Positions 4,981 to 56,237 of a stretch of 64,000 nt of DNA are shown here, one piece after another. The notes under the pieces are model-generated. The model was not told where the DNA came from, did not search any database, and was given only the letters and a program-made list of their open reading frames with translations. Numbering within the stretch: position 1 is the first letter of the stretch; each line of letters opens with the position of its first letter. The DNA lies in assembly GCF_056712565.1 (NCBI RefSeq), contig NZ_CM160072.1. One strand, given 5' to 3'. Position numbers and translations under genes: made by a program.

Positions 4981-5254
4981 AACGTGTTGCAATACCAGCG
5001 CCGGCATTGCGGAAATCAGCCCTGTCCCCGATGCTGGCGACACTCCCGCTCATCTTTCTGCTGACTCCTCTGGTCTGCCAACTGTTTGTCATCATTTCCT
5101 GACTGATTCGTCATTCCCTTCGTCCCGCCAGTCACTGGTGTTTGTATCGTACCGTCCGGTGTTGATGTGCGTTTTCCGTGTGTCTGCACCGGCTTAACAA
5201 AATTCAACAGGGTTTGAAAAGGAACATTTCGTGCAAATAACCGAAGCCTTAATT

Positions 5255-5590
5255 TCAGAGCCGGGAGACATCCGGCGTTTTGTTCAGCAGGCGCTGGAGT
5301 TCTTTAATCTGCTTCATGGCAGCAGCAAGTTCAGAGGCAGGAACGACCTGTTCTCCTGCGGCCACAGCAGTAAGACTTCCCTCCTGGTATTGCTTGCGCC
5401 AGAGAAATAACTGGCTGGCTGCCACACCGTGTTGCCGGGCAACAAGGGAGACCGTCATTCCCGGTTCAAAGCTCTGCTGAACAATAGCGATCTTTTCCTG
5501 TGTAGTACGCCGTCTGCGTTTCTCCGGTCCTAAGACATCAATCATCTGTTCTCCAATGACTGGTCTAAAAACTAGTATTAAGACTATCAC
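5255..5590 (-). mobile_element. IS66-family accessory protein TnpA (orfA) relic; rest of the IS is missing
   Basis: [44 protein letters not shown] matches the IS66 OrfA signature; no orfB/tnpC follows. Confidence 0.6.
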
Positions 5591-5728
5591 TTAAATAAGT
5601 GATATTGGTTGTCTGGAGATTCTGGGGGCTAGTCTAGTTTTAAAGCGCCCCCTGCCGTATCAGAACTGGGGAATGCTACAGGGTTTGACCTGTTCCTCGA
5701 GGATCGTAGCGGAGCTAGCCATGAAAAA

Positions 5729-6793
5729 ATGATCCAGGCCCGAAATCAGCTTCTTGCTGAAGCGGCGAAAAGTCCAGCGTTAAACATGGTTCGTCCTAAC
5801 GGCATGAACGATGAGCCTCAGTTCCAGATTCTGATTGATGACGAGAAAGTTCAGGCGTTTAAACTGAGCATGAGCGACGTCGACAACATAATGTCAGCAG
5901 CCTGGGGTTCGATGTATGTAAATGATTTTAACGATCGTGGACGGGTGAAAAAAGTCTATATTCAGGGCGAACCCGGCTCACGTATATCACCGCAGGATTT
6001 TGATAAATGGTATGTCCGTAACAGTGATGGCGACATGGTTTCCTTTGCCTCTTTTGCAACAGGCAAATGGATTTATGGCTCACCAAAACTGGAGCAATAT
6101 AATGGTATCTCTGCTGTCGAAATCCTGGGGGAACCGGCACCAGGATACAGTTCCGGGGATGCAATGAAAGCAATTGAGGATATTGCGGCAAGACTTCCCG
6201 AAGGTTTCCATATTTCCTGGACAGGTTTGTCTTTTGAGGAACGACTTTCAGGTTCTCAGGCTCCTGCACTATATGCACTTTCACTGTTGATCGTCTTTCT
6301 GTGTCTGGCTGCACTGTATGAAAGCTGGAGCATTCCTTTCTCGGTCATGCTGGTTGTTCCGCTTGGTGTCCTGGGGGCTGTCTGTGCTACTTTGTTGCGC
6401 GGCCTTGGTAACGATGTCTTTTTCCAGGTCGGTTTATTAACAACAATAGGGCTGTCTGCGAAAAATGCCATACTTATCGTGGAGTTTGCTCGTGAATTGC
6501 ATGAGAAAGAAGGACTAAGCATTAAAGAGGCTGCTGTTGAAGCGGCGAGAGTGAGGTTAAGACCGATAATTATGACTTCGCTGGCATTTGTAATGGGGGT
6601 TATCCCACTGGCTGTCTCGACTGGAGCAAGTTCCGGAAGTAAACATGCCATCGGTACTGGTGTGGTTGGAGGGATGATCACTGCTACGATACTGGCAATC
6701 TTTTATATTCCTCTCTTCTATATGTTAATTGCCGGGTTCTTCAGCCGCAGAAATAAGAAATCATCGGATAAGACTGAAGCTGAGCAATCATAA
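5729..6793 (+). pseudogene. C-terminal third of an RND multidrug efflux permease (AcrB/AcrF-like); 5' two-thirds absent
   Basis: ORF aligns to the last ~350 residues of AcrB ([19 protein letters not shown]..., [20 protein letters not shown]..., MTSLAF) with nothing coding for the N-terminal ~650 aa. Confidence 0.75.
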
Positions 6794-6892
6794 GCATGAG
6801 TAAATATTCAGGTGCAGTAAACAACATACTGCGCCTGAGTAAATGGCTGTTGGGTTGGTACTAAATGCCCCAGAGATATTTCCTGAAATAAG

Positions 6893-7264
6893 ATGTCAAT
6901 GGAGATTTCAACAGTGGTGCGGCACACAAAATTTGCAGCGGAAGAAACCCGCAAACAAATCCTGGATGTGGCAGAGTTCTGCTTTTGTGAGACGGGCTTT
7001 TCGAAGACGACACTGGAGATGATTGCGGCGCGCGCAGGTTGTACTCGGGGGGCCATATACTGGTATTTCAACGAAAAAAAAGATCTTCTGCGACAAGTCA
7101 TCGAGCGGGTACCACTATCATTATTTGATGAGCTTACAGCCATCAAAAATGGGAGAGTTTTTGAACCGGTTAAAGCGATGTATCGTTGCTTATCACGTAG
7201 CCTGATTAAATTACAATATAATGTACACTTACGGAATGTAATTTATATTGTGTTTTTTTTGTGA
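6893..7264 (+). pseudogene. TetR/AcrR-family regulator, N-terminal HTH retained, C-terminus degenerate
   Basis: TetR HTH signature (TTLEMIAARAGCTRGAIYWYFNEKKDLL); ORF is only 123 aa and ends in low-complexity sequence. Confidence 0.55.
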
Positions 7265-7535
7265 AGAATGTCCGGATGATATAAGAATAAATTTCTTACA
7301 AAAAATGGTGGATGTCAATAATTTTGTGAAATTACTATGTTATATTTTCGAAAAAGGTAAGTTATATAGAGAAATATGTTTGGAAATTCGTAGTGAGACT
7401 CTGGCGTTCCTGCTTTTTTCTTTGTTTACGGGGGGGGGCGAAGTTGCATTCTGCAACCTGATAATAAATCCCTTTTCAGAGAGGGTTGCATAGTACTGGA
7501 GTTGACCCAATCAACCTTCACAGGCATCGATAAAA

Positions 7536-7881
7536 ATGAACGCTACTATAAAAAACAGCTCTGATATCAATGAGTTTGCTAAATGGATTGATGAAAATCT
7601 TGAGGTAGAACTCTCAATAAATATTGAGGCAAAAAAAGCTGGATATTCAAAATGGTATTTACAGAGATTGTTTAAACATATCATTGGTATTTCTATTGGT
7701 AGGTATATTAATAAATGCAGCAGAAGAACTACGTTCTACTACTGAATCGGTCACGACTATCACTTTTAAATATCAGTTTGATTTTCAGCAGACATTTACA
7801 AGGGCATTTACTCGCCGCTTTGGTATAGCTCCTATTGCATACCGAAAACTCGCTAAGGAAGAAGTGAGATGGAATAGTTAG
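7536..7881 (+). pseudogene. MarA/RamA/SoxS-like small AraC-family activator, split by a frameshift
   Basis: Two overlapping ORFs (7536..7745, 7624..7881) carry the two halves of a MarA-type double HTH (AGYSKWYLQRLFK... / ...FDFQQTFTRAFTRRFGIAPIAYRK). Confidence 0.55.
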
Positions 7882-8183
7882 TTATGTAAGCGTTATTTAC
7901 TTAAGCGTGGATATATAAGAATGATATTATCAATATGTTGCTCATGAGTTTTTAATAGCATATAGGCTTGTTAACATAGCCCAGCAATATACTTTGCAGT
8001 GGGAGCAGGTATGCATACAGAACAGTGGGCGAGGACGAGCGTCCCTTTTCGAACAAGGTAGCAAAAGAGGAAGAAGAAAGACAAATACAACTGGGCCTGA
8101 AAGGGTAGTGTTTAAGCCCCCTTTCAGGGGGCCGTGTCAAAGCCGCCCGCTATGCAGATGGTTTTTTACTTTATCTGTTAAGC

Positions 8184-12674: not shown

Positions 12675-14515
12675 GATCACCACCTACATAGGAGGTGTTT
12701 TAAAATTGATCGAGTAGGAGGCGGGATCACTCCCGCCGTCCTCTCACACCACCGTACATGCGGCTCCGCATACGGCGGTTCATGTTAACACTGGAACTGC
12801 CTCTGCTGTTCCAGCAGTGATATCAGACCCTGCCTGCTGAACCACGCATTCTTTATCGCCTGATTCATATGGCTTGACTCTGAGTTCCACCATGGCCCGT
12901 GGTTGTTGTACGCTGAGATCATCGCCCTGTCCTTACTCAGTCCTGCTCTTTGCAGGTTCTTTGCCCGGGTTAGCGGTCTCTTCCACTGCCGCTACAACAA
13001 GCAACGCAGTTTCCGTTTGATCCAGCCATCCAGCTCCTCCAGCACTCCTCTGACCTCCGTCAGCCTGAAGTAGCTTATCCATCCACACAGCACTGGTGTC
13101 AGAGCATTGATTGTCGCTTTCACTGATTTGCTCCGGTTTCCCGTCGTCAGACTGTGGACTTTCTCCTTCAGCCTGTTCACGCTCGTCAGGGCTATCTTCA
13201 GCTTCGCCTGTTTGTGCCATGTCACACTGTACCCGAGGAACTTCCGATCCCACGGGCGCGCCACCGCGCTCTTCTTCTCATTCACCTTCAGTTTGTTCTC
13301 CACGAACGCCCTGATGTTCTTCAGCAGATGGTCGCCCGCTTTCCGGCTGCTTACGTAGATGTTGCAGTCGTCTGCGTAGCGGCAGAAGCTGTGTCCACGA
13401 CGCTCCAGTTCTTTATCCAGTTCATCCAGCAGGATGTTCGACAGTAACGGCGACAGTGGGCCGCCCTGCAGCATGCCCGCCTGCCGTTTCTCCCTTTGCC
13501 CGTCTTTAACCATTTCCGCTTTCAGGTAGCGGCGTATCAGTCACAGCACCCGCCTGTCCTTTATCGTTCTGGCCAGACGCGTCATCAGGAGTCTGTGATC
13601 CACCCGGTCGAAGAACTTCTCCAGATCCATATCCACCACCCACCGTTTGCCACCCCGTATGTAACGCTGTGCCTGTTGCACCGCCTGCTGGATAAGCCTG
13701 TCCACCACCGTCGGGATGCCTGAGGTTCTCACGCCGCCATCCGGCTTCGGGATATCCATCCGGCGTATTGTCCGCGGCTGGTAGTTTCCGTCAATCAATG
13801 CCTGCCTGACGCTGCGCCAGTTCTTCTTCAGCCACGGTTTCAACTCCGCCACGCTGAGGTTATCCACCCCCGCCGTGCCTTTGTTTTCCACCACGCGCTG
13901 ATAAGCCAGCATCAGGTTTTCTCTCGTTATCACCGCTTCCATCGTCAGCGGCACTTCCGCTTTCGTTTGCCCACCCGCCGCCGTGCTGATTTCAGCGCCA
14001 TCATGCAGCCCTGACGGATACTGTCCGTCTCCTCTGCCGCTGGTCGCAGTGGCCTGCGCTTGTGCTTCATTAATCATCATCGGGTTCGGATGTCCTAATC
14101 ACAGTTAATCATGTTCGGCCCTTCATGCTGCCGGTTTTGCAGCACTACTACGGCGTCGGCTGACTTCTGCCGCCCCATCCCGGCGCCTCACGGCGCCGGT
14201 AGCACACTGGCAGGGCGACAGATCTCCCGGGGTAATTCACGCGACTTTCCTGCTTATGCCTGTCGGCTTTACGTCACAGCGTTCCGTGTGAGTATCGGGC
14301 TTTGGTGATTAGTGCCACCTTACCCTGCTGCGCCGCCTTAACCGCTTCCTGTTCGTCAGGCCAGCATTTTGCATCCAGCTTCCTTCAGATTTCACCTCGC
14401 GATGAACACCCTTGCCTTCCGCTAACACTTCCCCTCACCGGGTGTGTGGAGGACTTTCACCTCTTAGTCGTTCTTCTGCCACCACAGTTGAAGAACAGCG
14501 CCAGTCACGGCGCAC
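12675..14515 (-). mobile_element. Group II intron (~1.8 kb) inserted just downstream of the microcompartment operon terminator; ends approximate
   Basis: Minus-strand GTGCG at 14515..14511 8-9 nt after the terminator T-tract; RT/maturase ORF inside; domain V-like hairpin at ~12745..12775 (CCGTATGCGG / CCGCATGTACGG with 2-nt bulge) and GNRA-capped helix after it. Confidence 0.65.
12784..14080 (-). pseudogene. Group II intron reverse transcriptase/maturase, disrupted by one frameshift (~13515-13540) and one in-frame TAG (12992-12994)
   Basis: RT blocks 0-2 in ORF 13541..14080 (AGVDNLSVAEL, IPKPDGGVRTSGIPTVVDRLIQQA, DMDLEKFFDRVDH); RT4-5 in ORF 12992..13513 (QGGPLSPLLSNILLD, FCRYADDCNIY); maturase tail continues in the same frame past the TAG (QWKRPLTRAKNL...LISLLEQQRQFQC). 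Confidence 0.7.
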
Positions 14516-25834: not shown

Positions 25835-26593
25835 TTACCCCTGGTCCGCATTCATGGCGATGCCTAATGGTGTGACCAATAGTGGCTCTGCCGAAGGAAT
25901 CACATTTTTACCGGTTTGTTTACTGAACACGTTGGCAAACTGGCTGAAGCTGCTCGCGCCACCTACCAAATAAATATTTTTTACCTGCTGGGTAGCGAAC
26001 CATCCCGACACCAAGCTGGCCATTTTCTGGGCCACCGGTAGCACCAGGGTAAAGACCTGCGCTTCCTGCCCGTTTTTTTTCATTTCTTCCGCCTCGGCAT
26101 AAGGCAAGCCCAGCGCGCCAGCGATCACCAACTTCATATGGCTTCCACCGGTGGGCTCATCGGCACTGAACGTCACTTTACCGCTTTTCAAAATGCTCAT
26201 GCCGGTGGTGCCTCCTCCGACATCCACCACCGCCCCGTTTTTAATATTCAGCGCGCTGGCAGCGGCTACCGGTTCATCTAGTACTTGGGTCACGATAAAA
26301 CCCGCCAACTCCACTACGTTGACGATCACTTTTGTGTTGCCTTCAGAGATCCCCGGTGGGACTGCGATCGCCGCGCGCTCCAGCGTGCAGCCCTGTTTCT
26401 GTTCAAGAATTTGTTTGAGACGTGCTACTACCCGGCTGGCGGTCAGGTAATCCACCACCACGCCGTCTTTCACCACATTGGAGGGATACATTACCCCTGC
26501 CACCGGCTGGTTATCTTCATCCAGCACCACGATTGCGATATTGGCGGTACCGAGATCCCCCCCACCTTCAACGCGCCGGAGTAGGGCCGACAT
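25835..26593 (-). CDS. EutJ-like actin-fold ATPase/chaperone
   Basis: GGDLGTANIAIVVLD... and VVDVGGGTTGMSI... match the phosphate-1/phosphate-2 motifs of the Hsp70/actin fold as in EutJ. Confidence 0.7.
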   Translation of the reverse strand: MSALLRRVEGGGDLGTANIAIVVLDEDNQPVAGVMYPSNVVKDGVVVDYLTASRVVARLKQILEQKQGCTLERAAIAVPPGISEGNTKVIVNVVELAGFIVTQVLDEPVAAASALNIKNGAVVDVGGGTTGMSILKSGKVTFSADEPTGGSHMKLVIAGALGLPYAEAEEMKKNGQEAQVFTLVLPVAQKMASLVSGWFATQQVKNIYLVGGASSFSQFANVFSKQTGKNVIPSAEPLLVTPLGIAMNADQG

Positions 26594-26647
26594 TCGCCGC
26601 TGTCAATCAGCGCGGCCAATTCGTGAAATCGGCAGTTTTCGGGGCTG

Positions 26648-27334
26648 TTAGCCATGGCGCGCAGCCTGTTTTATGCCGCGAACGGTATCGCCATTACGCA
26701 GACCGACGCCGTTAGCTTCTTCCATATCAATATGCAGTTCCAGCACTGCATCCGCCGTGACGCGTACCACTACATGGCTGAGCACACCACCGCGCGGACC
26801 GTTTGTTTGCACATCGATTTCCATTCCGTCATGCAGGCCGTGCAGTTCGGCTTCTTCGGGCGAGATATGGATATGGCGCCAGGCGACAATCATGCCGTTG
26901 TGTTTCACCACCCGCCCTTTCGGACCGATGATTTCAATGCCCGGCGAATCCAGCAGATCCCCCGACATGCGCACCGGAGCTTTAGTGCCCAGCGCAAAGC
27001 CGTCGGCCACAGAGATTTCCACCTGCGTGGCATTACGCAGTGGCCCTAACACGCGCACTTTGTTGAGCTCGCCTTTTGGCCCGCGCAGCGTCACCATCTC
27101 TTCGGCGGCATACTGACCGGGCTGTTTCAACGCTTTAGAACGGGTTAGCGTAGAGCCGTAGCCAAACAGAATGTCCATATCTTCACGGCACAGATGAACA
27201 TGGCGGTTGGACACGCCCACCGGAATATTCAGCGCGACAGGCGCGGCAGCAGGCGCTGCCGTTTTTTTACTGGTGGCAAGTTCCTGCAAAATTTGTTGGG
27301 TAATCCACTCGGCTTGTTGTTCGGTGTAATTCAT
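26648..27334 (-). CDS. pduL: Phosphate acyltransferase PduL (phosphotransacylase)
   Basis: Duplicated PduL/EutD-type motifs (GVSNRHVHL and AWRHIHISPEEA; GPKG/GPRGGV). Confidence 0.8.
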   Translation of the reverse strand: MNYTEQQAEWITQQILQELATSKKTAAPAAAPVALNIPVGVSNRHVHLCREDMDILFGYGSTLTRSKALKQPGQYAAEEMVTLRGPKGELNKVRVLGPLRNATQVEISVADGFALGTKAPVRMSGDLLDSPGIEIIGPKGRVVKHNGMIVAWRHIHISPEEAELHGLHDGMEIDVQTNGPRGGVLSHVVVRVTADAVLELHIDMEEANGVGLRNGDTVRGIKQAARHG

Positions 27335-27473
27335 AATGGGTACGACCTGATTATTGGGTTATCTTATGGGTAATGGGCGTCTAACGATCAGGATAGGGAG
27401 TAACGACGCCCGGTTTTTGTTTATCAGCAGGACTTTTTTGACTGCTTCACGGAGGCTGAACAAAGTTATCCAG

Positions 27474-28592
27474 CTAGCCGGTAATCAGGTCGATCAACCC
27501 TTCGACATCATGCGTCGTCACCTGCCGCGGGTTCGACGCGGTACAACCGTCGGCCAGCGTCGAATTCACCAGTGCGCTGCGCAACTCGATGATTTTTGCA
27601 CGGTCGATGCCCAGTTCGCTGAGAGTGACGGGGATGCAGAAATGGCGATTGATCTGGCGGATCTCCTGAGTCATCAGCGCGATGGCCTGCTCCGGTACCG
27701 CATGGTCAATGCCTATGATTTGCGCGCAACGGTGATAGCGATCGCGGGTTTCAGTGCTGGCCCGTTTGCTGTTGAAGTCGATGACAATCGGCAGCAGCAT
27801 GGCGTTAATTTTGCCATGAGGAATATGCAGCATCCCGCCGATGGCGTGTGCCATGCCGTGTACCAACCCCAGCCCGGCGGAGTTAAATGCCATGCCTGCC
27901 ATACAGGAGGCATTGTGCATGTGGGTGCGCGCCGCAATGTCTTTTTCGTCGTTAAACACCTGCGGCAGATAGCGCCAGGTCAACGCGATGGCTTTTTCCG
28001 CCAGCGCATCGCTAAAGTCATTTGAGCCAGTAGAGACAAAGGCTTCAATGGCATGGGTCAGCACGTCCATGCCGGTATCTACCGCGACATGACGCGGCGC
28101 GGTTAACACTAGGTTAGGATCGAGAATGGCGATTTCCGGCACCAGTTGCCCGGAGATCAACGGATATTTGCGGCCATTTTGCGGATCAGAGATGATCGCG
28201 TAGGACGTCACTTCAGAGCCGGATCCGCTGGTTGTGGGAATAGCAATGAGATCGATTTGATGATCTCCAAAATACTCTTCCAATGTGACTTTAATTCCTT
28301 TCGCAGCGTCCAGCGACGAGCCGCCGCCGAGGGCGATAATAACGTCGGGCTTAAAGGCTTTAAAACGCGCCGCGCCGGAAGTCAGAATATCAATATCTGG
28401 ATCCGGAGTAACCTCACCGAAAATGCATACCGATGCCTCAGGCATATGGCTTATTAAATAACGAGTTTTACCTGATGACATCATAAAATCATCGGTGACA
28501 ATACCGACTCGTTTATTATTAAATTGGCATAGAGAGGTTATTGCCTCTTCACCAAAATAAATTTTGGGGCACGAAAAATAATAGCGGGCCAT
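27474..28592 (-). CDS. Iron-containing alcohol dehydrogenase (PduQ/EutG-like), first gene of the operon
   Basis: Fe-ADH signatures GGGSSLDAAK and the metal-site His-rich region (HGMAHAIGGMLHIPHG). Confidence 0.85.
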   Translation of the reverse strand: MARYYFSCPKIYFGEEAITSLCQFNNKRVGIVTDDFMMSSGKTRYLISHMPEASVCIFGEVTPDPDIDILTSGAARFKAFKPDVIIALGGGSSLDAAKGIKVTLEEYFGDHQIDLIAIPTTSGSGSEVTSYAIISDPQNGRKYPLISGQLVPEIAILDPNLVLTAPRHVAVDTGMDVLTHAIEAFVSTGSNDFSDALAEKAIALTWRYLPQVFNDEKDIAARTHMHNASCMAGMAFNSAGLGLVHGMAHAIGGMLHIPHGKINAMLLPIVIDFNSKRASTETRDRYHRCAQIIGIDHAVPEQAIALMTQEIRQINRHFCIPVTLSELGIDRAKIIELRSALVNSTLADGCTASNPRQVTTHDVEGLIDLITG

Positions 28593-29040
28593 GTGTAACT
28601 ACCTTAATCATGGTAAACGACCAAATTTGATGTCGTTAACCTAACATGGCGATTTTTTTAATGGACTGAGGATGTTTGTGCAGGTGAAGGATTATTTTGC
28701 GGTATTGTTTTGCCTTGAGCAAAAAAGTCCTTTTCTAGGAAATACCTAAAATCTGATACAGTCAAACTCAATATTTATTGTCAGAGAATGAATAAAAGCG
28801 GGGTGTTTTTTTGCCACTGCACTGCTTCAGGAATGTATTCACCCCTCATAAAGGCTTCAATGACTCTCCGCCATGGCAAACATGCCATAGGGGGAGATTT
28901 TCAGATAATGATAATAATGTTCGCCCACATCCGATTGTAAATGGATCAGAAAAATGGCCGCGTATTGCCCTGCTGAATGTGGATTACGTCACCTGTTTTG
29001 AATTGCCTTTCTGCTTACCCGGACACCACAACTGATTGCT

Positions 29041-29442
29041 GTGCTGCGTGAAGAATGGGACATCAGCCAGAAAAATGTGGTGTTCAACGATAAACGCTTT
29101 GGCTGCGTGTACAGCCTGAAGGCCAGTCTTTCCAGTGTGCCGGATACATACCGGTATCATCTGTCTCACCGTATTCGTCGCGTGGTTGGGAATGAAAACA
29201 CATCATTGCCATATCAGCAGGTTGCCCGGGAAGTGAAAGCGCCCCGTGAACGGCTGAAGTATGCGCTGGAGGCGGGGTTACTGGTGACCGCACTGGACGG
29301 CCTGTTCTGGTCTGGCAGTCAGCGTATTGCGGCTGATGTCCTGAGACTAAGACAGAGCGGAATGCCGGTGGTGACAACGACCGTGGAGGTGCACGATAAC
29401 CTGACGGGAACAACCCGCAAAATACCGGCATACCATCTCTGA
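29041..29442 (+). CDS. Hypothetical protein; possibly the 3' part of a frameshifted gene beginning in ORF 28811..29035
   Basis: ORF only; no motif recognised. Confidence 0.25.
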   Translation: MLREEWDISQKNVVFNDKRFGCVYSLKASLSSVPDTYRYHLSHRIRRVVGNENTSLPYQQVAREVKAPRERLKYALEAGLLVTALDGLFWSGSQRIAADVLRLRQSGMPVVTTTVEVHDNLTGTTRKIPAYHL

Positions 29443-29537
29443 TACAACCATCAGGGGGAATATTGCTCTGGCAGCAGCAGTACGACATTCTTTATACTTT
29501 ATCCCCGTGCCTGAAAACATGTGCTAAGGAAACGGGA

Positions 29538-29771
29538 ATGGCAAGGTCCGATTACGATATTATCAATCTGTCTCTGGAACATGAACTGAATGAGTGGCTG
29601 GCAGAGAGAGGTTATGCCGGACTGGCGTATAACCGGAACCGGGTGGTAGAGGTGGTTACCCGCAAATTGCAGGACAGCTTTTATATCAACGTTTCCTGGG
29701 ATGCGCTGAACACGGCATACAATGAACACCCGGAGTGGTTTTCAGGGTTTGTCTCCGGGGATGAGAATTAA
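29538..29771 (+). CDS. Small hypothetical protein
   Basis: ORF only. Confidence 0.2.
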   Translation: MARSDYDIINLSLEHELNEWLAERGYAGLAYNRNRVVEVVTRKLQDSFYINVSWDALNTAYNEHPEWFSGFVSGDEN

Positions 29772-30607
29772 TAAGTGGATTATGCTGCCATCAGGCAGTG
29801 TGATTGCCGGCAGGGATTTCGTTTTATTCTGTTTCTTCCCGGGGGTCGGGTTTGAATTTTCCCAGAAAGTTGTACATCGGTCGCATACAGGGATGCGGAT
29901 AACCCTCCCGCATAAAAACCACTCGGGTTTCTTCGACGCTGGTTACGGTGGCCAGTGCTCCATGATCGTCTTTGTATCGCTGATTGACTTTCGGTAATGG
30001 AACATCTTCTGACATAAATTTTAGTACGGTAACAGTTAACTAAATTTTCATGTGGTAGCACTGAATCAGGAGACTGCGTTTCCTGATGTGCGCTGTTAAT
30101 TTTCTGTTTTTACGAAACATTTTCCCCTTCTTCCTGTGTATTTTATTGCGCTCCTCTTTTCATGTCCTTCCCATATCCTGAAACTCACTTAAATGCTGTT
30201 GAATCGTCACGCATTGCAATTTTCAATGACTGAAATCAAAAATTGCTATTTTTTAAGCTAACCAACTGTATTAAAAGCATTCAGTGGAATAATTTTCTGC
30301 ACTTTTCCATTAATTATGGTTATAAATTTTGTAATGTGCTGTTTTTGCGATATTAGTCAGAATAAAGAACTGTTCATTTGTATTATATTGATCGATAAAT
30401 CTGCCATATTGCTGTAGTTCAGATCATTATTCTATAATGATCAAAATTAAGTCAGCTAAAAATTGGCAGATTTATTACTCAGCATTCTGGTACCGGTTGA
30501 TGTGGGTAAATACCGGAAAGGCGGTAGCGTGCCATTGCAAAAAATGGTGGGAGGTATCGTCAGGAGGCTGGTAATTGTTGGTATGGCATGAATAAAAGGT
30601 TTTTCGT

Positions 30608-31045
30608 TTGACTGGAAAATTATGTTGCAGGAACGTGAGGGCTGAGGAACAAAGCGTATTCCGGCGCTGTCCGTCCTTGCTGTCACTGACACTGATGTCT
30701 GCTTTATTATCGCCTTTATCTCTTCAGGCAGCGGATGTCCGGCGTAGCGGAGATGAAGCATTTATCATTCAGCAGCAGCGTCAGGAAGCCCTTGAGCAAC
30801 AACTGATGCCTTCAGCCCCTGATGTTCGCCTTTCTGCACCTGGCTCTTTTGCACGTAAGATTAATTTTCCTGTTGAAACGCCCTGTTTTCAGATTAAACA
30901 GACGGAACTGGAGGGGGCTGATGCGTTACCACACTGGCTGCCTTTACAAAAAATCGCCAACGGGGCGGTCGGGCACTGTCTGGGGGCGAAAGGAATTAAT
31001 CTGCTGATGAGTACATTGCAGAACCGTCTGGTCGATCATGGTTAA
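30608..31045 (+). pseudogene. N-terminal fragment of a two-partner-secretion outer-membrane transporter (TpsB/ShlB/CdiB-like)
   Basis: Signal-peptide-like start then POTRA-region resemblance ([16 protein letters not shown]...[12 protein letters not shown]); only 145 of the expected ~550 aa. Confidence 0.4.
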
Positions 31046-31116
31046 CCCTTTCCGGTCAGCAGATAACGCGACTGACAGAATTACCCCCGGCATATAACCT
31101 GCAGCGCAGTGCGCAG

Positions 31117-31515
31117 TTGCTGCAGCAACTGATGGTACTTTTCCCCGACAATCCCCATGTTCAGGAAATGGTGGATAACTGGCAGAAGAGCGTAAGGAGT
31201 CGTGCGCTCCCGGAAGAGGCGATGACGGGCTGGAATGAAGGCATGACCCGCTTACAGCAGCTGGCTGAACGCCTGAACCGTCTGGATGAACAGCGGGGAA
31301 AATACATGACGGTCAGTGAACTGAGAACGGAGGTGTTTGGCATCATGCAGGCCTTTAACCGGCATATCCCGGCGGAAGAGCAGTTACGTCGCTATGATGA
31401 AGCCCGTAACCAGAATGGCAGTGAACAGCAGCAAAAACAGGCTGAAATGGCACTGAATCAGCTGATTAATCGTTATCAGGTGGAACACGCTGGCAAACCG
31501 GAGAGGCAGCCATGA
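31117..31515 (+). CDS. Hypothetical protein or gene fragment
   Basis: ORF only; Gln/Glu/Arg-rich. Confidence 0.2.
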   Translation: MLQQLMVLFPDNPHVQEMVDNWQKSVRSRALPEEAMTGWNEGMTRLQQLAERLNRLDEQRGKYMTVSELRTEVFGIMQAFNRHIPAEEQLRRYDEARNQNGSEQQQKQAEMALNQLINRYQVEHAGKPERQP

Positions 31516-31753
31516 TGGCTGATAAAACATGGTAATGGAAAATAAACCCAAAAGAATGCGCACACCATGGGCAATCGAAGATATTCGCTACCTTGAAACG
31601 CATTATGGCGTGAAAAAAAACGCGAAATAGCGGCATATTGCCATGGGAGGGGATATGTCTGTCAGGCTGACTTGTTTTTCTCTTAAATAGCCTTTATTTA
31701 AATTAGCCTTGGTATGAAATTAGAATCTATTAATTTTTATCAAAGGAGATTGT

Positions 31754-33190
31754 GTGACAATAGCAAGAGATTCTGTTAGTGGTGAAATTGTTCATGGTCA
31801 TGATCTTCGGGAAATGGATGATCTTTATATACGAACAACCACTTTTGAATGCCCGTATGACAAATGTAGGATACCCGCTACTCCATGTAGCTTCAAAGAA
31901 ATAAATTTAAATCAATCATACTTTCGATATAAAGAGACTCATAGGCCGGGATGTAATATTCATGATCCTAAGAGTAAAAATAAGTGTAACTCAAAGAATA
32001 ATAAAAAGCATAATTCACCACCGGCATTAGCTATATCTCTTCTGAAACTTGATGTGTCTGAAAGAAATTACGACTCTTCTGGCAGAAGAATTATCAAACA
32101 GACGCGAAATGATGAAAAAGATTTGGGAGGTAAAGTACACCCTGTGTCATCTTCAAGCATCAAACCGGTAGTAGACTACTACATTAATGGAGATAATCTC
32201 TATGAACCATTATCAATTCCCCCTTATGGAGTTAGAACTTATAAAGATACTTTTCAACTAATCATCTATAAAGAAGGAATTAGATATAATAAGCCAGCAA
32301 TTTATTTTGGTAAAATTCAATCTAATATACGGCTGGAGATAAATTCGAATAGATATTACCTTACTTTTTTAGCCAGAAAGAAAGGTACCAAACAAGCATA
32401 TAAACTTGAAATTGATGCTTCAGAATGGGATGAAAGTAAAAAGAGTTTTTTCTGTAGTGAGTATGAAAAACAAAGAGCAGAAGCAAATAAGTATTATAAT
32501 GGACTAAAAGACAAGCGCAAAGCAACCAAATATCTTAATATTTTCTTTTTTGGTTTTCCTGATGAGTGCGATAGTTTTTTATTTAAGACTAGTTGTTTTA
32601 AATTGATTTATATCGTTTTCTTAGATGATTTTGATGTGACTTATAATGACAAAAACTACAGCATAGAAAAAGAACAGCTAATTAGAGATGAAATTAACAA
32701 AGAACATTTGACAGATCATCAAAATAGAATAAACCTTGCTGAGGTTGCTGAGGTTGCTGAGGTTGCTGAGGTTGCTGAGGTTGCTGAGGTTGCTGAGGTT
32801 GCTGAGGTTGCTGAGGTTGCTGAGGTTGCTGAGGTTGCTGAGGTTGCTGAGGTTGCTGAGGTTGCTGAGGTTGCTGAGGTTGCTGAGGTTGCTGAGGTTG
32901 CTGAGGTTGCTGAGGTTGCTGAGGTTGCTGAGGTTGCTGAGGTTGCTGAGGTTGCTGAGGTTGCTGAGGTTGCTGAGGTTGCTGAGGTTGCTGAGGTTGC
33001 TGAGGTTGCTGAGGTTGCTGAGGTTGCTGAGGTTGCTGAGGTTGCTGAGGTTGCTGAGGTTGCTGAGGTTGCTGAGGTTGCTGAGGTTGCTGAGGTTGCT
33101 GATTTTGACAAGAGCGAATTTAACCCTTCGGATTCTGATAGGAAAATATGGACTGGGATAAGAAAGCTTATTTCATTCTTTAAAAAATAG
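31754..33190 (+). CDS. Hypothetical AT-rich protein with a Cys/His-containing N-terminal region and a C-terminal (Ala-Glu-Val)x40 tract
   Basis: GTG start preceded by AAAGGAGA; 478 aa ORF; the in-frame 9-bp repeat encodes AEV 40 times. Confidence 0.6.
   Translation: MTIARDSVSGEIVHGHDLREMDDLYIRTTTFECPYDKCRIPATPCSFKEINLNQSYFRYKETHRPGCNIHDPKSKNKCNSKNNKKHNSPPALAISLLKLDVSERNYDSSGRRIIKQTRNDEKDLGGKVHPVSSSSIKPVVDYYINGDNLYEPLSIPPYGVRTYKDTFQLIIYKEGIRYNKPAIYFGKIQSNIRLEINSNRYYLTFLARKKGTKQAYKLEIDASEWDESKKSFFCSEYEKQRAEANKYYNGLKDKRKATKYLNIFFFGFPDECDSFLFKTSCFKLIYIVFLDDFDVTYNDKNYSIEKEQLIRDEINKEHLTDHQNRINLAEVAEVAEVAEVAEVAEVAEVAEVAEVAEVAEVAEVAEVAEVAEVAEVAEVAEVAEVAEVAEVAEVAEVAEVAEVAEVAEVAEVAEVAEVAEVAEVAEVAEVAEVAEVAEVAEVAEVAEVADFDKSEFNPSDSDRKIWTGIRKLISFFKK
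32738..33097 (+). repeat. Perfect tandem repeat, 40 copies of GCTGAGGTT (360 bp)
   Basis: Read directly: unit starts at 32738 and repeats without a single mismatch to 33097, then a partial GCT. Confidence 0.95.
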
Positions 33191-33221
33191 ATCTATAGCA
33201 GTCATCATATTGGATTATTGG

Positions 33222-33257
33222 TGAAGTGGTACACTGAATTTGCCCACCTGAACAGAG
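33222..33257 (+). mobile_element. Solo IS911/IS3-family terminal inverted repeat (IS scar)
   Basis: TGAAGTGGTACACTGAATTTGCCCACCTGAACAGAG differs at only ~2 positions from the terminal repeat of the intact IS911 at 41881..41914. Confidence 0.5.
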
Positions 33258-33321
33258 TTGGTTTTATCAAACTTGTAGTTTACTCAATGACGTAAAAATT
33301 GGTGATGTAAAGGATATAAAA

Positions 33322-35106
33322 ATGTGGTCAGACAAAGAGTCATCAGAAGACTACCTAAATTTTGGTGAAGTATCTCAGTTAGCCGTGGATGTACTTACCA
33401 CGAAAGATATGTTACCAGTATCTATCGGAATTTTTGGAAACTGGGGGGCAGGTAAATCCTCTCTGTTAAAACTGATAGAGCAAAAACTTGAGCAAGACGA
33501 CAAAGATTGGATTGTTATCAATTTTGACTCTTGGCTCTATCAGGGGTACGACGACACCCGTGCCGCACTTCTTGAAGTCATCGCTACAGAATTGACAAAA
33601 GCTGCTGAAGGTAATTCAGCCCTTATATCAAAAACTAAGAGACTCCTTAGTCGAGTTGATGGTTTTAGAGCTATGGGATTACTAGCTGAGGGTACAGCTT
33701 TAATGGCAGGATTACCTACTGGCGGTTTGCTTTCTAGGGGGATTGGTGCATTAAGAAATATCACCGATGGCATCCAGAGCCAGGAAGAGTATGAGGCTTT
33801 AGGCAATATAGCTAAAGAAGGTAAAGAAACTGCTTGTGGTTTGATTAAACCACAAACAAAAAAAAGCCCCCCTCAGCAGATTGATGCCTTTCGTAAGGAA
33901 TATGGGGAAATTCTAGAAGAACTTGGAAAGCCACTCATTGTGGTAATAGATAACCTAGACCGCTGTCTCCCTGCCAATGCTATCCATACACTTGAAGCTA
34001 TCAGGCTATTCCTTTTCTTGACTAATACAGCCTTTATTATTGCAGCAGATGAGGACATGATTCGCTCTTCTGTGGCTGATTACTTCAAAGGGGCATCACA
34101 GCGCCATCAAATAGATTATCTGGATAAGCTAATCCAGGTTCCTATTCGGGTGCCTAAGGCTGGGGTCCGTGAGATCCGTTCGTATCTGTTCATGCTTTAT
34201 GCCATTGAACATGGCTTAGAAGGCGAAAAAATAACTATGCTCCGTGAGGGCTTAGAGAAGGCGTTACAGCAATCCTGGAAAGATGAACCAATCTCACGTC
34301 AGGAGGCCTTAAAAATGACTGGTGAAGCGGATGATAGCAACCTCGCGCTGGCGTTTGCGCGTGCTGACCGTATTGCTCCCATTTTAGCCAACTCTCCAAT
34401 TATTCATGGTAATCCCAGGATCGTTAAACGCTTGTTGAATGTTGTGAAAATGCGATCTCAAATTGCGAAGCGACGAGCAATGCCTTTGGATGAAGCAATT
34501 ATTACTAAGCTAGTAATTTTTGAACGCTGTGTTGGAGTGGATGGCACCGCTGATTTATATCATCTCGTGGATATTGAACAAGGTGTTCCCCAGATACTTA
34601 AACAGCTTGACGATAATGGCGGTCAAATACCTACTGATGCACCAAAGACATGGACTGATAGTCCAACGACTAAATCTTTCATCAGTCAATGGGCCCAACT
34701 TGAACCTCGTCTTGGTGGGATTGACTTAAGGGCCGCCATATATCTGTCCCGAGAAACTATGCCAATAGGTGCATATGTGGTTGGTTTATCGCCATCTGGA
34801 CGGGAAGTACTAAATGCACTAATTGAATTGAAAAACACTAGTTCTCCTACAGCAGAAAACCTTTTGAAAGCACTTCCTCGTGAGGAGCAAATACCTGTAA
34901 TGGAAGGTTTAATTAACCAGTTACGGCAGGTATCAGATTGGGATCGTAAGCCCAGAGGCTTTTCCGGTGCATGTCTGTTGGCCCGCTACTCAACAGATGC
35001 AGCCAGCATATTAATTCGTTATCTACAGGAATTACAGTTGGGGATGAAACGACCAGCGTGGATGACTGCAGCATTAAAAGATGAACAATGGAATAAGGAC
35101 GCTTAA
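33322..35106 (+). CDS. qatA: KAP-family P-loop NTPase (QatA-like)
   Basis: Walker A GNWGAGKSS followed by the KAP-characteristic INFDSWLY block; 594 aa. Confidence 0.8.
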   Translation: MWSDKESSEDYLNFGEVSQLAVDVLTTKDMLPVSIGIFGNWGAGKSSLLKLIEQKLEQDDKDWIVINFDSWLYQGYDDTRAALLEVIATELTKAAEGNSALISKTKRLLSRVDGFRAMGLLAEGTALMAGLPTGGLLSRGIGALRNITDGIQSQEEYEALGNIAKEGKETACGLIKPQTKKSPPQQIDAFRKEYGEILEELGKPLIVVIDNLDRCLPANAIHTLEAIRLFLFLTNTAFIIAADEDMIRSSVADYFKGASQRHQIDYLDKLIQVPIRVPKAGVREIRSYLFMLYAIEHGLEGEKITMLREGLEKALQQSWKDEPISRQEALKMTGEADDSNLALAFARADRIAPILANSPIIHGNPRIVKRLLNVVKMRSQIAKRRAMPLDEAIITKLVIFERCVGVDGTADLYHLVDIEQGVPQILKQLDDNGGQIPTDAPKTWTDSPTTKSFISQWAQLEPRLGGIDLRAAIYLSRETMPIGAYVVGLSPSGREVLNALIELKNTSSPTAENLLKALPREEQIPVMEGLINQLRQVSDWDRKPRGFSGACLLARYSTDAASILIRYLQELQLGMKRPAWMTAALKDEQWNKDA

Positions 35107-56161: not shown

Positions 56162-56237
56162 TGGTGCCCGGACTCGGAATCGAACCAAGGACACGGGGAT
56201 TTTCAATCCCCTGCTCTACCGACTGAGCTATCCGGGC
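56162..56237 (-). tRNA. pheU: tRNA-Phe (anticodon GAA)
   Basis: Reverse complement reads GCCCGGATAGCTCAGTCGGTAGAGCAGGGGATTGAAAATCCCCGTGTCCTTGGTTCGATTCCGAGTCCGGGCACCA; pheU rather than pheV inferred from the yjdC-dsbD-cutA-dcuA-aspA flank. Confidence 0.95.

Follow-up and report, generated by a model that had tools for sequence, protein, structure and literature searches.

Between grpA (27474-28592, minus strand) and the ORF of a 478-aa repeat protein that starts at 31754 lies a 3-kb region, and the question that it raises is which DNA once stood there and whether anything in it still works. The window, i.e., the whole stretch of 64,000 nucleotides that was analysed, is a tRNA-Phe (pheU-type) island of B2-type E. 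coli, and positions 28400-31800 were 100% identical to APEC O1 and ATCC 11775. The tRNA-linked pathogenicity islands of E. coli are mosaics with IS elements and pseudogenes. In the window, likewise, the end of the island is marked by a tRNA-Phe gene with an integrase, and IS1 and IS3 copies, truncated genes and lineage-specific deletion states are present; the window differs in no unusual way from such islands with gene remnants. A preliminary description, made from the letters of the DNA, had spoken of a gene-decay zone containing short ORFs only. Indeed, none of the ORFs between the two neighbours exceeded 145 aa, and decay was found for the pieces of cdiB, tagA and an ECs1377-family gene, but not for a 77-aa gene and a DUF4222 gene, both of which are intact. 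We hold it very probable that the region is a scar in the tRNA-Phe genomic island, without a working system of its own. This is ordinary genome decay with RefSeq pseudogene flags already on the fragments; all that is added here is an exact account of which DNA was lost.

The cdiB and tagA fragments

The piece at 30677-31045 (plus strand) is the 5' fragment of cdiB, which encodes a TpsB transporter. It had been proposed as a TpsB-like fragment within an ORF at 30608-31045; this ORF was present and matched Pfam POTRA_2 (PF08479, ShlB-type, E=3.1e-10), a significant similarity to TpsB proteins that upholds the proposal, and the full-length relative of this cdiB matched solved CdiB structures (PDB 6WIL, E=7e-79). 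The POTRA_2 match spanned profile positions 1-51 of 76, indicating that the gene was cut inside the first POTRA domain. Counted from the ATG at 30695, the first 116 of 550 codons (21%) are left, which encode a signal-peptide-like start, an N-terminal segment and some two thirds of POTRA1. At the N-terminus, a hydrophobic stretch closes with an A-x-A-like site. The fragment DNA was 96-98% identical to the 5' end of intact cdiB in other E. coli and collinear with cdiB of strains C8 and OkiPb01698, where the ORF is intact at 550 aa, and RefSeq annotates it as a POTRA pseudogene without its C-terminus. TTG 30677 or TTG 30608 are also possible starts. For cdiB(STEC4), the start was placed 18 nt upstream of the annotated start of that gene (PMC8510554), and a TTG 18 nt upstream of the annotated ATG is also found in the window cdiB, the annotated starts being assumed comparable. 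With its native upstream DNA, a 122-aa CdiB stub with a presumed signal peptide may still be produced.

The N-terminal part in the window matches the ShlB-type POTRA of TpsB/Omp85 transporters (FhaC, ShlB and CdiB; PDB 6WIL, 6WIM and 4QKY), and the full-length relative, which matches the solved CdiB and FhaC chains, contains two POTRA domains together with a ShlB barrel. In contrast, the window piece stops inside POTRA1, and neither the second POTRA (PF17287) nor the C-terminal 16-strand barrel (PF03865) was detected in its ORF. What the window holds is a fragment of a TpsB gene, not a TpsB transporter. When the 122-aa fragment alone was searched against PDB sequences, no match was obtained, and a word-indexed protein search, in which all matches were proteins of at most 366 aa, revealed no full-length TpsB; intact cdiB was located via genome context.

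The other piece (31042-31515, plus strand) is what remains of the 3' part of tagA, a gene for a T6SS accessory protein. Alignment of the whole of 30608-31515 to TpsB loci had been suggested; this was right for 30608-31045, which is cdiB, but not for 31117-31515, which encodes the VasL domain of tagA (PF12486, E=2.1e-30, profile positions 24-144 of 147). Because the latter part is a tagA remnant and not TpsB, two different systems left remnants in the region. About 157 codons remain from the end of the 454, with no start codon of their own at the junction. TagA has been defined in EAEC and V. cholerae by ImpA_N, a membrane segment and VasL (PMC6745524). The full-length 454-aa relative likewise has ImpA_N and VasL with a hydrophobic segment between them, and intact ORFs of this length with both domains were found in strains 300709 (ImpA_N, PF06812, E=8e-17), MEW and C8, whereas the window keeps the VasL part only, and neither ImpA_N (PF06812) nor a hydrophobic segment was found in its fragment. 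In strain MEW, tagA ends a complete T6SS gene cluster, and homology to this cluster ends at 31636, with 31516-31636 forming the 3' flank of the T6SS-derived block. To the right of it comes the DNA upstream of the gene for the 478-aa repeat protein, followed by the Qat system, and the ORF list contained no T6SS-sized ORF within 26000-35000. The cdiB and tagA pieces are presumably non-functional.

The deletion junction and its origin

In a three-way alignment, the cdiB/tagA deletion junction fell at 31039-31044, a 6-nt overlap of the homology blocks that reads TGGTTA in the window and the cdiB parent and TGGATA in the tagA parent. Five of the six positions match, and the perfect microhomology is TA (2 bp). 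The two pieces are fused out of frame, with tagA in the -1 frame relative to cdiB, and the stop codon TAA of the cdiB fragment (31043-31045) was made by the junction. In the lineage of the window, one deletion joined cdiB codon 116 to tagA codon ~297 and created this stop, probably by illegitimate (microhomology-mediated) recombination; it comes to 19.8 kb in the layout of C8, a single reference that itself contains IS elements. Both halves of a junction-spanning probe matched together in 185 of 5,426 complete genomes, and among the other genomes listed each half matched on its own, with match ends or starts at 31044 and 31039. About 1,290 E. coli genomes have the backbone together with the 5' end of cdiB.

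The truncated cdiB ORF could instead be a functional small gene, i.e., a secreted N-terminal TpsB/POTRA stub kept by selection, which might for example interfere with TPS export or incoming CDI. It retains the native upstream region, a start codon and the signal-peptide-like sequence, and the ORF was 100% conserved among the listed genomes of like arrangement (about 180 in which 80% or more of the probe was found). However, such conservation is compatible with recent clonal descent; the junction produced the stop codon by accident, and POTRA1 breaks off at profile position 51 of 76. In other lineages the truncation points differ (30736-30740, codon ~180 or an internal deletion), and the six differences from O157 are too few substitutions for a selection test. 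We regard a selected stub gene as highly improbable, and we give slightly less credit still to the pair of possibilities that the stub, kept with its AT-rich upstream region and presumed signal peptide, is made as a small protein of the periplasm under selection, for instance to modulate TPS or CDI traffic, or that the breakpoints of other lineages at 30736-30740 mark a recombination hot spot and are not a coincidence. As another source of the POTRA-VasL junction, homologous exchange between the POTRA region of cdiB and a further POTRA fragment upstream of VasL was considered, because in C8 and WCHEC4533 RefSeq gives the label of a 'POTRA domain-containing protein' fragment to a piece of 130 nt that lies between ImpA_N and VasL. 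It was rejected and has next to no credibility: the piece is the membrane-segment region of the intact tagA ORF, and its label stems from a chimeric 348-aa 'POTRA' protein of O157 that ends in that tagA segment. Neither blastn nor tblastx revealed similarity between the 130-nt piece and cdiB, and the actual junction shares TA only (5/6 nt).

The lost locus in related islands

That a two-partner secretion or CDI locus had once been here and was then deleted, as the preliminary description supposed, was borne out by synteny. C8 and OkiPb01698 have intact cdiB-cdiC-cdiA after the matching left flank, which consists in both strains and in the window of the ECs1377-family gene, the 77-aa gene, the DUF4222 gene and the AT-rich spacer. 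The right flank of C8 (tagA, repeat protein and KAP NTPase) also matches the window, and between the flanks lie intact cdiB, cdiC (a HlyC-type acyltransferase), a cdiA of 2984 aa, further genes and intact tagA. The 550-aa cdiB product of C8 has POTRA_2, POTRA_3 (E=4.9e-17) and the ShlB barrel (E=3.6e-109); cdiC at the syntenic position in C8 and OkiPb01698 matched HlyC (PF02794, E=6e-32); and C8 CdiA has ESPR, TPS, hemagglutinin repeats (Fil_haemagg) and PT-VENN. In less degraded relatives, cdiA is followed by orphan modules, a 3'-5' exonuclease gene and the T6SS tail, which is the last two genes of the cluster (a 101-aa gene and tagA), and thereafter by the repeat protein and Qat defence genes.

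The receptor-binding domain of class IV CDI, at around residues 1328-1589 in CdiA-STEC4, uses the LPS core as receptor. Class IV cdi loci are defined by the gene order cdiB-cdiC-cdiA (PMC8510554). As in the class IV cdiBCAI of E. coli STEC_O31 (ECSTECO31_0849-0851, CdiA-STEC4; Halvorsen et al. 2021, PMC8510554), cdiB of the syntenic relatives is followed by a cdiC of the HlyC family (a lysine acyltransferase gene) and then by a cdiA whose product combines a TPS domain and hemagglutinin repeats with a PT-VENN toxin tip. The lost locus would be a class IV-type cdiBCAI, as judged from gene order and domains in the relatives. Compared with such loci, the window keeps the upstream region and 21% of cdiB only; no barrel, cdiC, cdiA or cdiI was found in it, and it therefore cannot work as a CDI locus.

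The upstream region is the AT-rich spacer at 30016-30676 (661 bp, 37% G+C), which separates DUF4222 from the divergently oriented cdiB. This spacer was found upstream of cdiB in every related island and was collinear with its counterpart in two islands that keep intact cdiB (L011 and L012; blocks 93.8-94.3% identical overall). It is the native upstream region of the cdiBCAI locus and would be its former promoter region. The stretch 30050-30480 had been called AT-rich and promoter-like; the former was correct (32.5% G+C), but the latter found no support, as a sigma-70 consensus scan of 28400-31800 gave 7 sites against 6.1 +/- 2.5 in shuffles, which is chance level. Terminator counts in the same interval were also at chance level, Rfam gave no match there at E<=1, and the repeats sought in both spacers were just short, chance-like pairs. 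The coding pieces flanking the AT-rich stretch have a G+C content of about 50-53%. Two antisense ORFs, 29084-29488 and 30456-30761, lie opposite known genes and had no Pfam match.

The grp insert, the backbone and the order of events

The non-coding DNA upstream of grpA (28593-28946; 354 bp, 38% G+C) is the right end of a grp-bearing insert of ~23.6 kb with borders at ~5298 and 28946. Its left edge near 5298 adjoins a transposase fragment, and on the right, the backbone homology to three unrelated islands begins exactly at 28947, from where the left flank is conserved in four other islands. These 354 bp were at least 99% identical in 538 of 540 matching records and abut the identical truncated gene in all 24 records listed, a sample of the 538. 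The 23.6-kb segment with the grp microcompartment operon took the place of ~650 bp of backbone, and the ECs1377-family gene thereby lost its first 121 nt. The 354 bp probably arrived with the grp segment and carry its promoter, for which they are, by position only, a plausible site. Since they are all the grp-linked DNA upstream of grpA, any imported native grp promoter and GrpQ site must be there. TTTACA-16-CATTAT (minus strand, 28941-28914) is a promoter-like consensus match only, from the scan whose total was at chance level. The GrpQ footprint reported on fimS (PMC11724981) had a best match of 16/29 upstream of grpA, no better than shuffles. This DNA showed no similarity to the grp-like loci of Rahnella plasmids, and a search of a plasmid collection for other grp upstream regions found conservation just in the grpA coding part, in Rahnella.

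The truncated gene is an ECs1377-family ('DNA-binding protein') pseudogene (28947-29442, plus strand). Alignment showed that, in addition to the first 121 nt, it lacks 7 bp near 29010, a frameshifting deletion not present in strain WCHEC4533; the decay was stepwise, with the 5' end lost to the grp insert and the 7 bp later. RefSeq annotates this copy as a frameshifted, incomplete pseudogene. Full-length 207-aa homologues match NCBIfam NF052300 (E=5.5e-98, 326 bits vs a cut-off of 190), and the window copy is not a full-length ORF of ~207 aa as in this equivalog model. The next two genes belong to the conserved island backbone. The 77-aa gene (29538-29771, plus strand, annotated WP_000124175.1) was identical in length and frame in 5 other islands, with pN/pS of about 0.3-0.4. 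The DUF4222 gene (29824-30015, minus strand, 63 aa; PF13973, E=2.5e-21) covers profile positions 1-51 of 53 in an intact ORF, and comparison with six other islands gave pS of 0.26-0.29, pN of 0.014-0.034 and pN/pS of 0.05-0.13. These values show purifying selection on both genes, which are probably still functional backbone genes. The 77-aa product had no Pfam, NCBIfam or PHROG match, and no clue to function came from comparing the small backbone proteins with PHROG and NCBIfam.

Other lineages carry different, apparently independent deletions of the cdi locus. In O157:H7, residues 1-180 of cdiB form a chimera with part of cdiA and with the membrane segment of tagA; in 300709 and 214-4, cdiB has lost an internal part; in ETEC4070, cdiB at 30737 is joined to tagA at 31262; and WCHEC4533 shows yet another deletion state. 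The breakpoint cluster of other lineages at 30736-30740 sits in the putative signal-peptide codons of cdiB.

The backbone allele of the window was ~94% identical at best to every comparator, so its direct ancestor was not found among them, and the deletion may predate arrival at this chromosomal site, in an ancestral island. It is possible, though we lean the other way, that the island arrived already degraded or that the remnant was imported by homologous recombination, and that no CDI locus ever stood at this site. The same backbone and cdi remnants are found in islands at other chromosomal sites. Furthermore, despite the shared 28947 junction, the window and WCHEC4533 were 99.5-100% identical in grp DNA and 91-96% from ~28950 on; grp DNA this close beside a backbone ~5% apart points to later recombination between islands. 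However, the grp-linked WCHEC4533 keeps the exonuclease gene and the tagA 5' end, both lost in the window, and the window keeps cdiB 30737-31044, lost in WCHEC4533. Since the two keep different parts, either grp was once linked to a more complete locus or recombination took place. Arrival in a degraded state would in any case alter only the place of the deletion, not the identity of the DNA.

The finding is of little importance in itself. In other strains, the automatic annotation of RefSeq breaks intact cdiB, cdiA and tagA up into 'pseudogene' pieces, so that surveys of CDI or T6SS content could be misled, and in genome mining the fragments described here are not to be scored as a TPS, CDI or T6SS system. 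The exact borders of the grp insert are fixed at about 5298 to 28946, and the B2/ExPEC pheU-type islands with the grp operon stem from islands in which a class IV-type CDI locus and a T6SS tail were once present.

Setting and coding content of the region

The region between the grp operon and the Qat defence genes (28593-31650) is part of a tRNA-Phe (pheU-type) genomic island, since ARAGORN located tRNA-Phe at 56162-56237. Positions 28400-31800 were shared at 100% identity with E. coli APEC O1, ATCC 11775 and numerous human ExPEC isolates. In the APEC O1 RefSeq annotation, the minus strand to the left is occupied by the grp glycyl-radical propanediol microcompartment operon (grpA end at 28592). 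QatABCD and a SLATT pair are on the right, and the far right of the window has IS1 and IS3 copies together with an integrase and tRNA-Phe. A group II intron remnant (reverse-transcriptase and maturase fragments) was found within the microcompartment operon, between grpO and grpP (~12980-14070; 12983-14071 in record L002).

As the preliminary description had it, the region holds only short ORFs, none longer than 145 aa from grpA to the 478-aa ORF at 31754. Pfam assigned POTRA_2 (ShlB type) to 30608-31045 (E=3.1e-10, just profile positions 1-51 of 76), VasL (T6SS) to 31117-31515 (E=2.1e-30) and DUF4222 to 29824-30015 on the minus strand (E=2.5e-21), and the other ORFs tested in the region gave no significant match. 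RefSeq lists two small genes here, a hypothetical one of 77 aa and the DUF4222 gene, along with three pseudogenes: a frameshifted 'DNA-binding protein' that is incomplete at its N-terminus (28943-29442), a POTRA piece lacking its C-terminus (30695-31042) and a VasL piece lacking its N-terminus (31039-31515). Not everything has decayed: the 77-aa and DUF4222 genes are intact in every island compared, with fewer replacement than silent changes (pN/pS about 0.3-0.4 and 0.05-0.13, respectively). The AT-rich DNA at 30050-30480 was confirmed (32.5% G+C; 38% in the grpA upstream spacer). Across 28400-31800, a sigma-70 consensus scan returned 7 sites against 6.1 +/- 2.5 expected and Rfam gave no match; promoter assignments in the region are presumptions. 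A 42-aa ORF directly upstream of cdiB (30463-30591), annotated in some strains as hypothetical protein WP_001364398.1, had no family match.

Beside the region, ORF 31754-33190 encodes a 478-aa protein without a Pfam family. Its (AEV)n run is encoded by 40.8 perfect tandem copies of a 9-bp unit (TTGCTGAGG; 32736-33102), and gene length differs among strains (1131-1463 nt), so (AEV)n is an in-frame variable repeat. This gene immediately preceded the KAP NTPase (QatA) gene in 6/6 Qat- or KAP-linked islands examined.

A deletion joining cdiB to tagA

Homology to the O157:H7, ETEC4070, 300709, OkiPb01698 and C8 islands begins exactly at 28947, with about 94% backbone identity, and the common block comprises the ECs1377-family, 77-aa and DUF4222 genes, then the AT-rich spacer and the 5' end of a TpsB gene. 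In OkiPb01698 and C8 the TpsB gene is an unbroken ORF of 550 aa, covering POTRA_2 and POTRA_3 as well as the ShlB barrel (E=3.6e-109), which bears out the suggested TpsB-like N-terminal fragment at 30608-31045. The C8 transporter matched the solved CdiB structures 6WIL (E=7e-79) and 6WIM (E=1.5e-51), and FhaC also. A 175-aa HlyC-family acyltransferase gene follows in both strains, and then, in C8, one 2984-aa ORF that encodes ESPR, a TPS domain, hemagglutinin repeats and PT-VENN. The published hallmark of E. coli class IV cdi loci is the order cdiB, cdiC, cdiA (PMC8510554), likewise seen in C8. In PMC8510554 the start of cdiB(STEC4) is put at a UUG lying 18 nt before the annotated one; the window has TTG (30677) 18 nt before ATG 30695. 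The synteny with OkiPb01698 and C8 supports the proposed loss of a two-partner secretion or CDI locus and points to a class IV cdiBCAI gene order for it.

Downstream of cdiA, C8 carries an orphan VENN fragment, IS3, some small genes and a 3'-5' exonuclease gene, then a 101-aa gene and a 454-aa ORF whose ImpA_N and VasL domains flank a hydrophobic segment, and, as in the window's right flank, the repeat protein and KAP NTPase genes. The 454-aa ORF is thus a predicted TagA, whose architecture is the same (PMC6745524). In MEW, the 101-aa gene and tagA stand immediately after tssE, closing a full T6SS cluster, and homology to C8-type islands starts exactly at the 101-aa gene; therefore this 1.85-kb block is a T6SS tail. 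The proposed alignment of 30608-31515 to TpsB loci held for 30608-31045, but 31117-31515 is a T6SS tagA remnant (VasL).

The window aligned with C8 over 28947-31044 as far as record position 715140 and, from 31039 on, from 734916 (99.3% identity), and is therefore 19,781 bp short of the C8 layout. The junction reads GATCATGGTTA joined to ACCCTTTCC, its parents being cdiB (...CATGGTTATGTC) and tagA (...AGTGGATAACCC), with TA in common (5/6 in TGGTTA vs TGGATA). The join leaves 116/550 codons of cdiB and about 157/454 of tagA, creates a TAA at 31043-31045 and puts tagA out of frame (-1), so the two do not encode a fusion protein. Of 5,426 complete genomes, 185 match 80% or more of a 126-nt probe spanning the junction; in the other genomes listed its halves match apart, ending at 31044 or starting at 31039. 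For comparison, 192 genomes preserve 80% or more of a 2.5-kb cdiB-cdiC probe.

Other rearrangements in related lineages

Decay took different forms elsewhere. The 348-aa 'POTRA' protein of O157:H7 is chimeric, combining residues 1-180 of CdiB with a cdiA repeat segment and the membrane segment of TagA; 300709 and 214-4 have a 1,236-bp internal cdiB deletion with TATC microhomology and keep cdiC; ETEC4070 has cdiB at 30737 fused to tagA at 31262; and WCHEC4533, also grp-linked, has cdiB at 30736 fused to an IS fragment, keeping the exonuclease gene and an IS2-disrupted tagA. Three different rearrangements break within 5 nt, at window-equivalent 30736-30740 in the cdiB signal-peptide codons (L006 ~6130, L007 ~2409, L010 ~7129), and share the left-flank allele GGCCGCGGAT. 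These breakpoints could reflect coincidence, shared ancestry with IS insertion or a hot spot.

RefSeq automatic annotation breaks up the intact ORFs of cdiB (550 aa), cdiA (2984 aa) and tagA (454 aa), listing them as several 'incomplete pseudogene' pieces (C8 record L012, 16189-27348; L011, 7088-8740; tagA of L007, L005 and L013), and labels the tagA membrane-segment region 'POTRA domain-containing protein'. This probably comes about because the evidence proteins are deletion chimeras, e.g., the O157 348-aa protein.

The grp insert and recombination between islands

The window's copy of the ECs1377-family gene (full copy: NF052300, E=5.5e-98) is missing the first 121 nt and has a further 7-bp deletion, the latter not present in WCHEC4533. 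Beyond the grp operon, homology to the backbone ends near 5298, beside a transposase fragment. From these limits (near 5298; 28947), about 23.6 kb (roughly 5299-28946) took the place of about 650 bp of backbone. At the left edge of this insert (~5220-7900; L002 5221-7872) a second zone of decay borders the operon, with a transposase fragment, a truncated gene for an RND efflux permease and short ORFs of the TetR and AraC families. The 354 bp upstream of grpA were at least 99% identical in 538/540 matching records, adjoin the same truncated ECs1377-family gene in all records listed and have no counterpart in Rahnella plasmids; thus they are the sole grp-linked DNA upstream of grpA, and a putative grp promoter likely lies within them. 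The GrpQ footprint sequence known from fimS was not recognisable upstream of grpA.

The grp DNA of the window and WCHEC4533 was 99.5-100% identical; from about 28950 on, identity falls to 91-96% although the 28947 junction is common to both, which argues for recombination between island variants. The deletion may be older than its arrival at the present chromosomal site. The region represents ordinary island decay, its fragments being already marked as pseudogenes in RefSeq.
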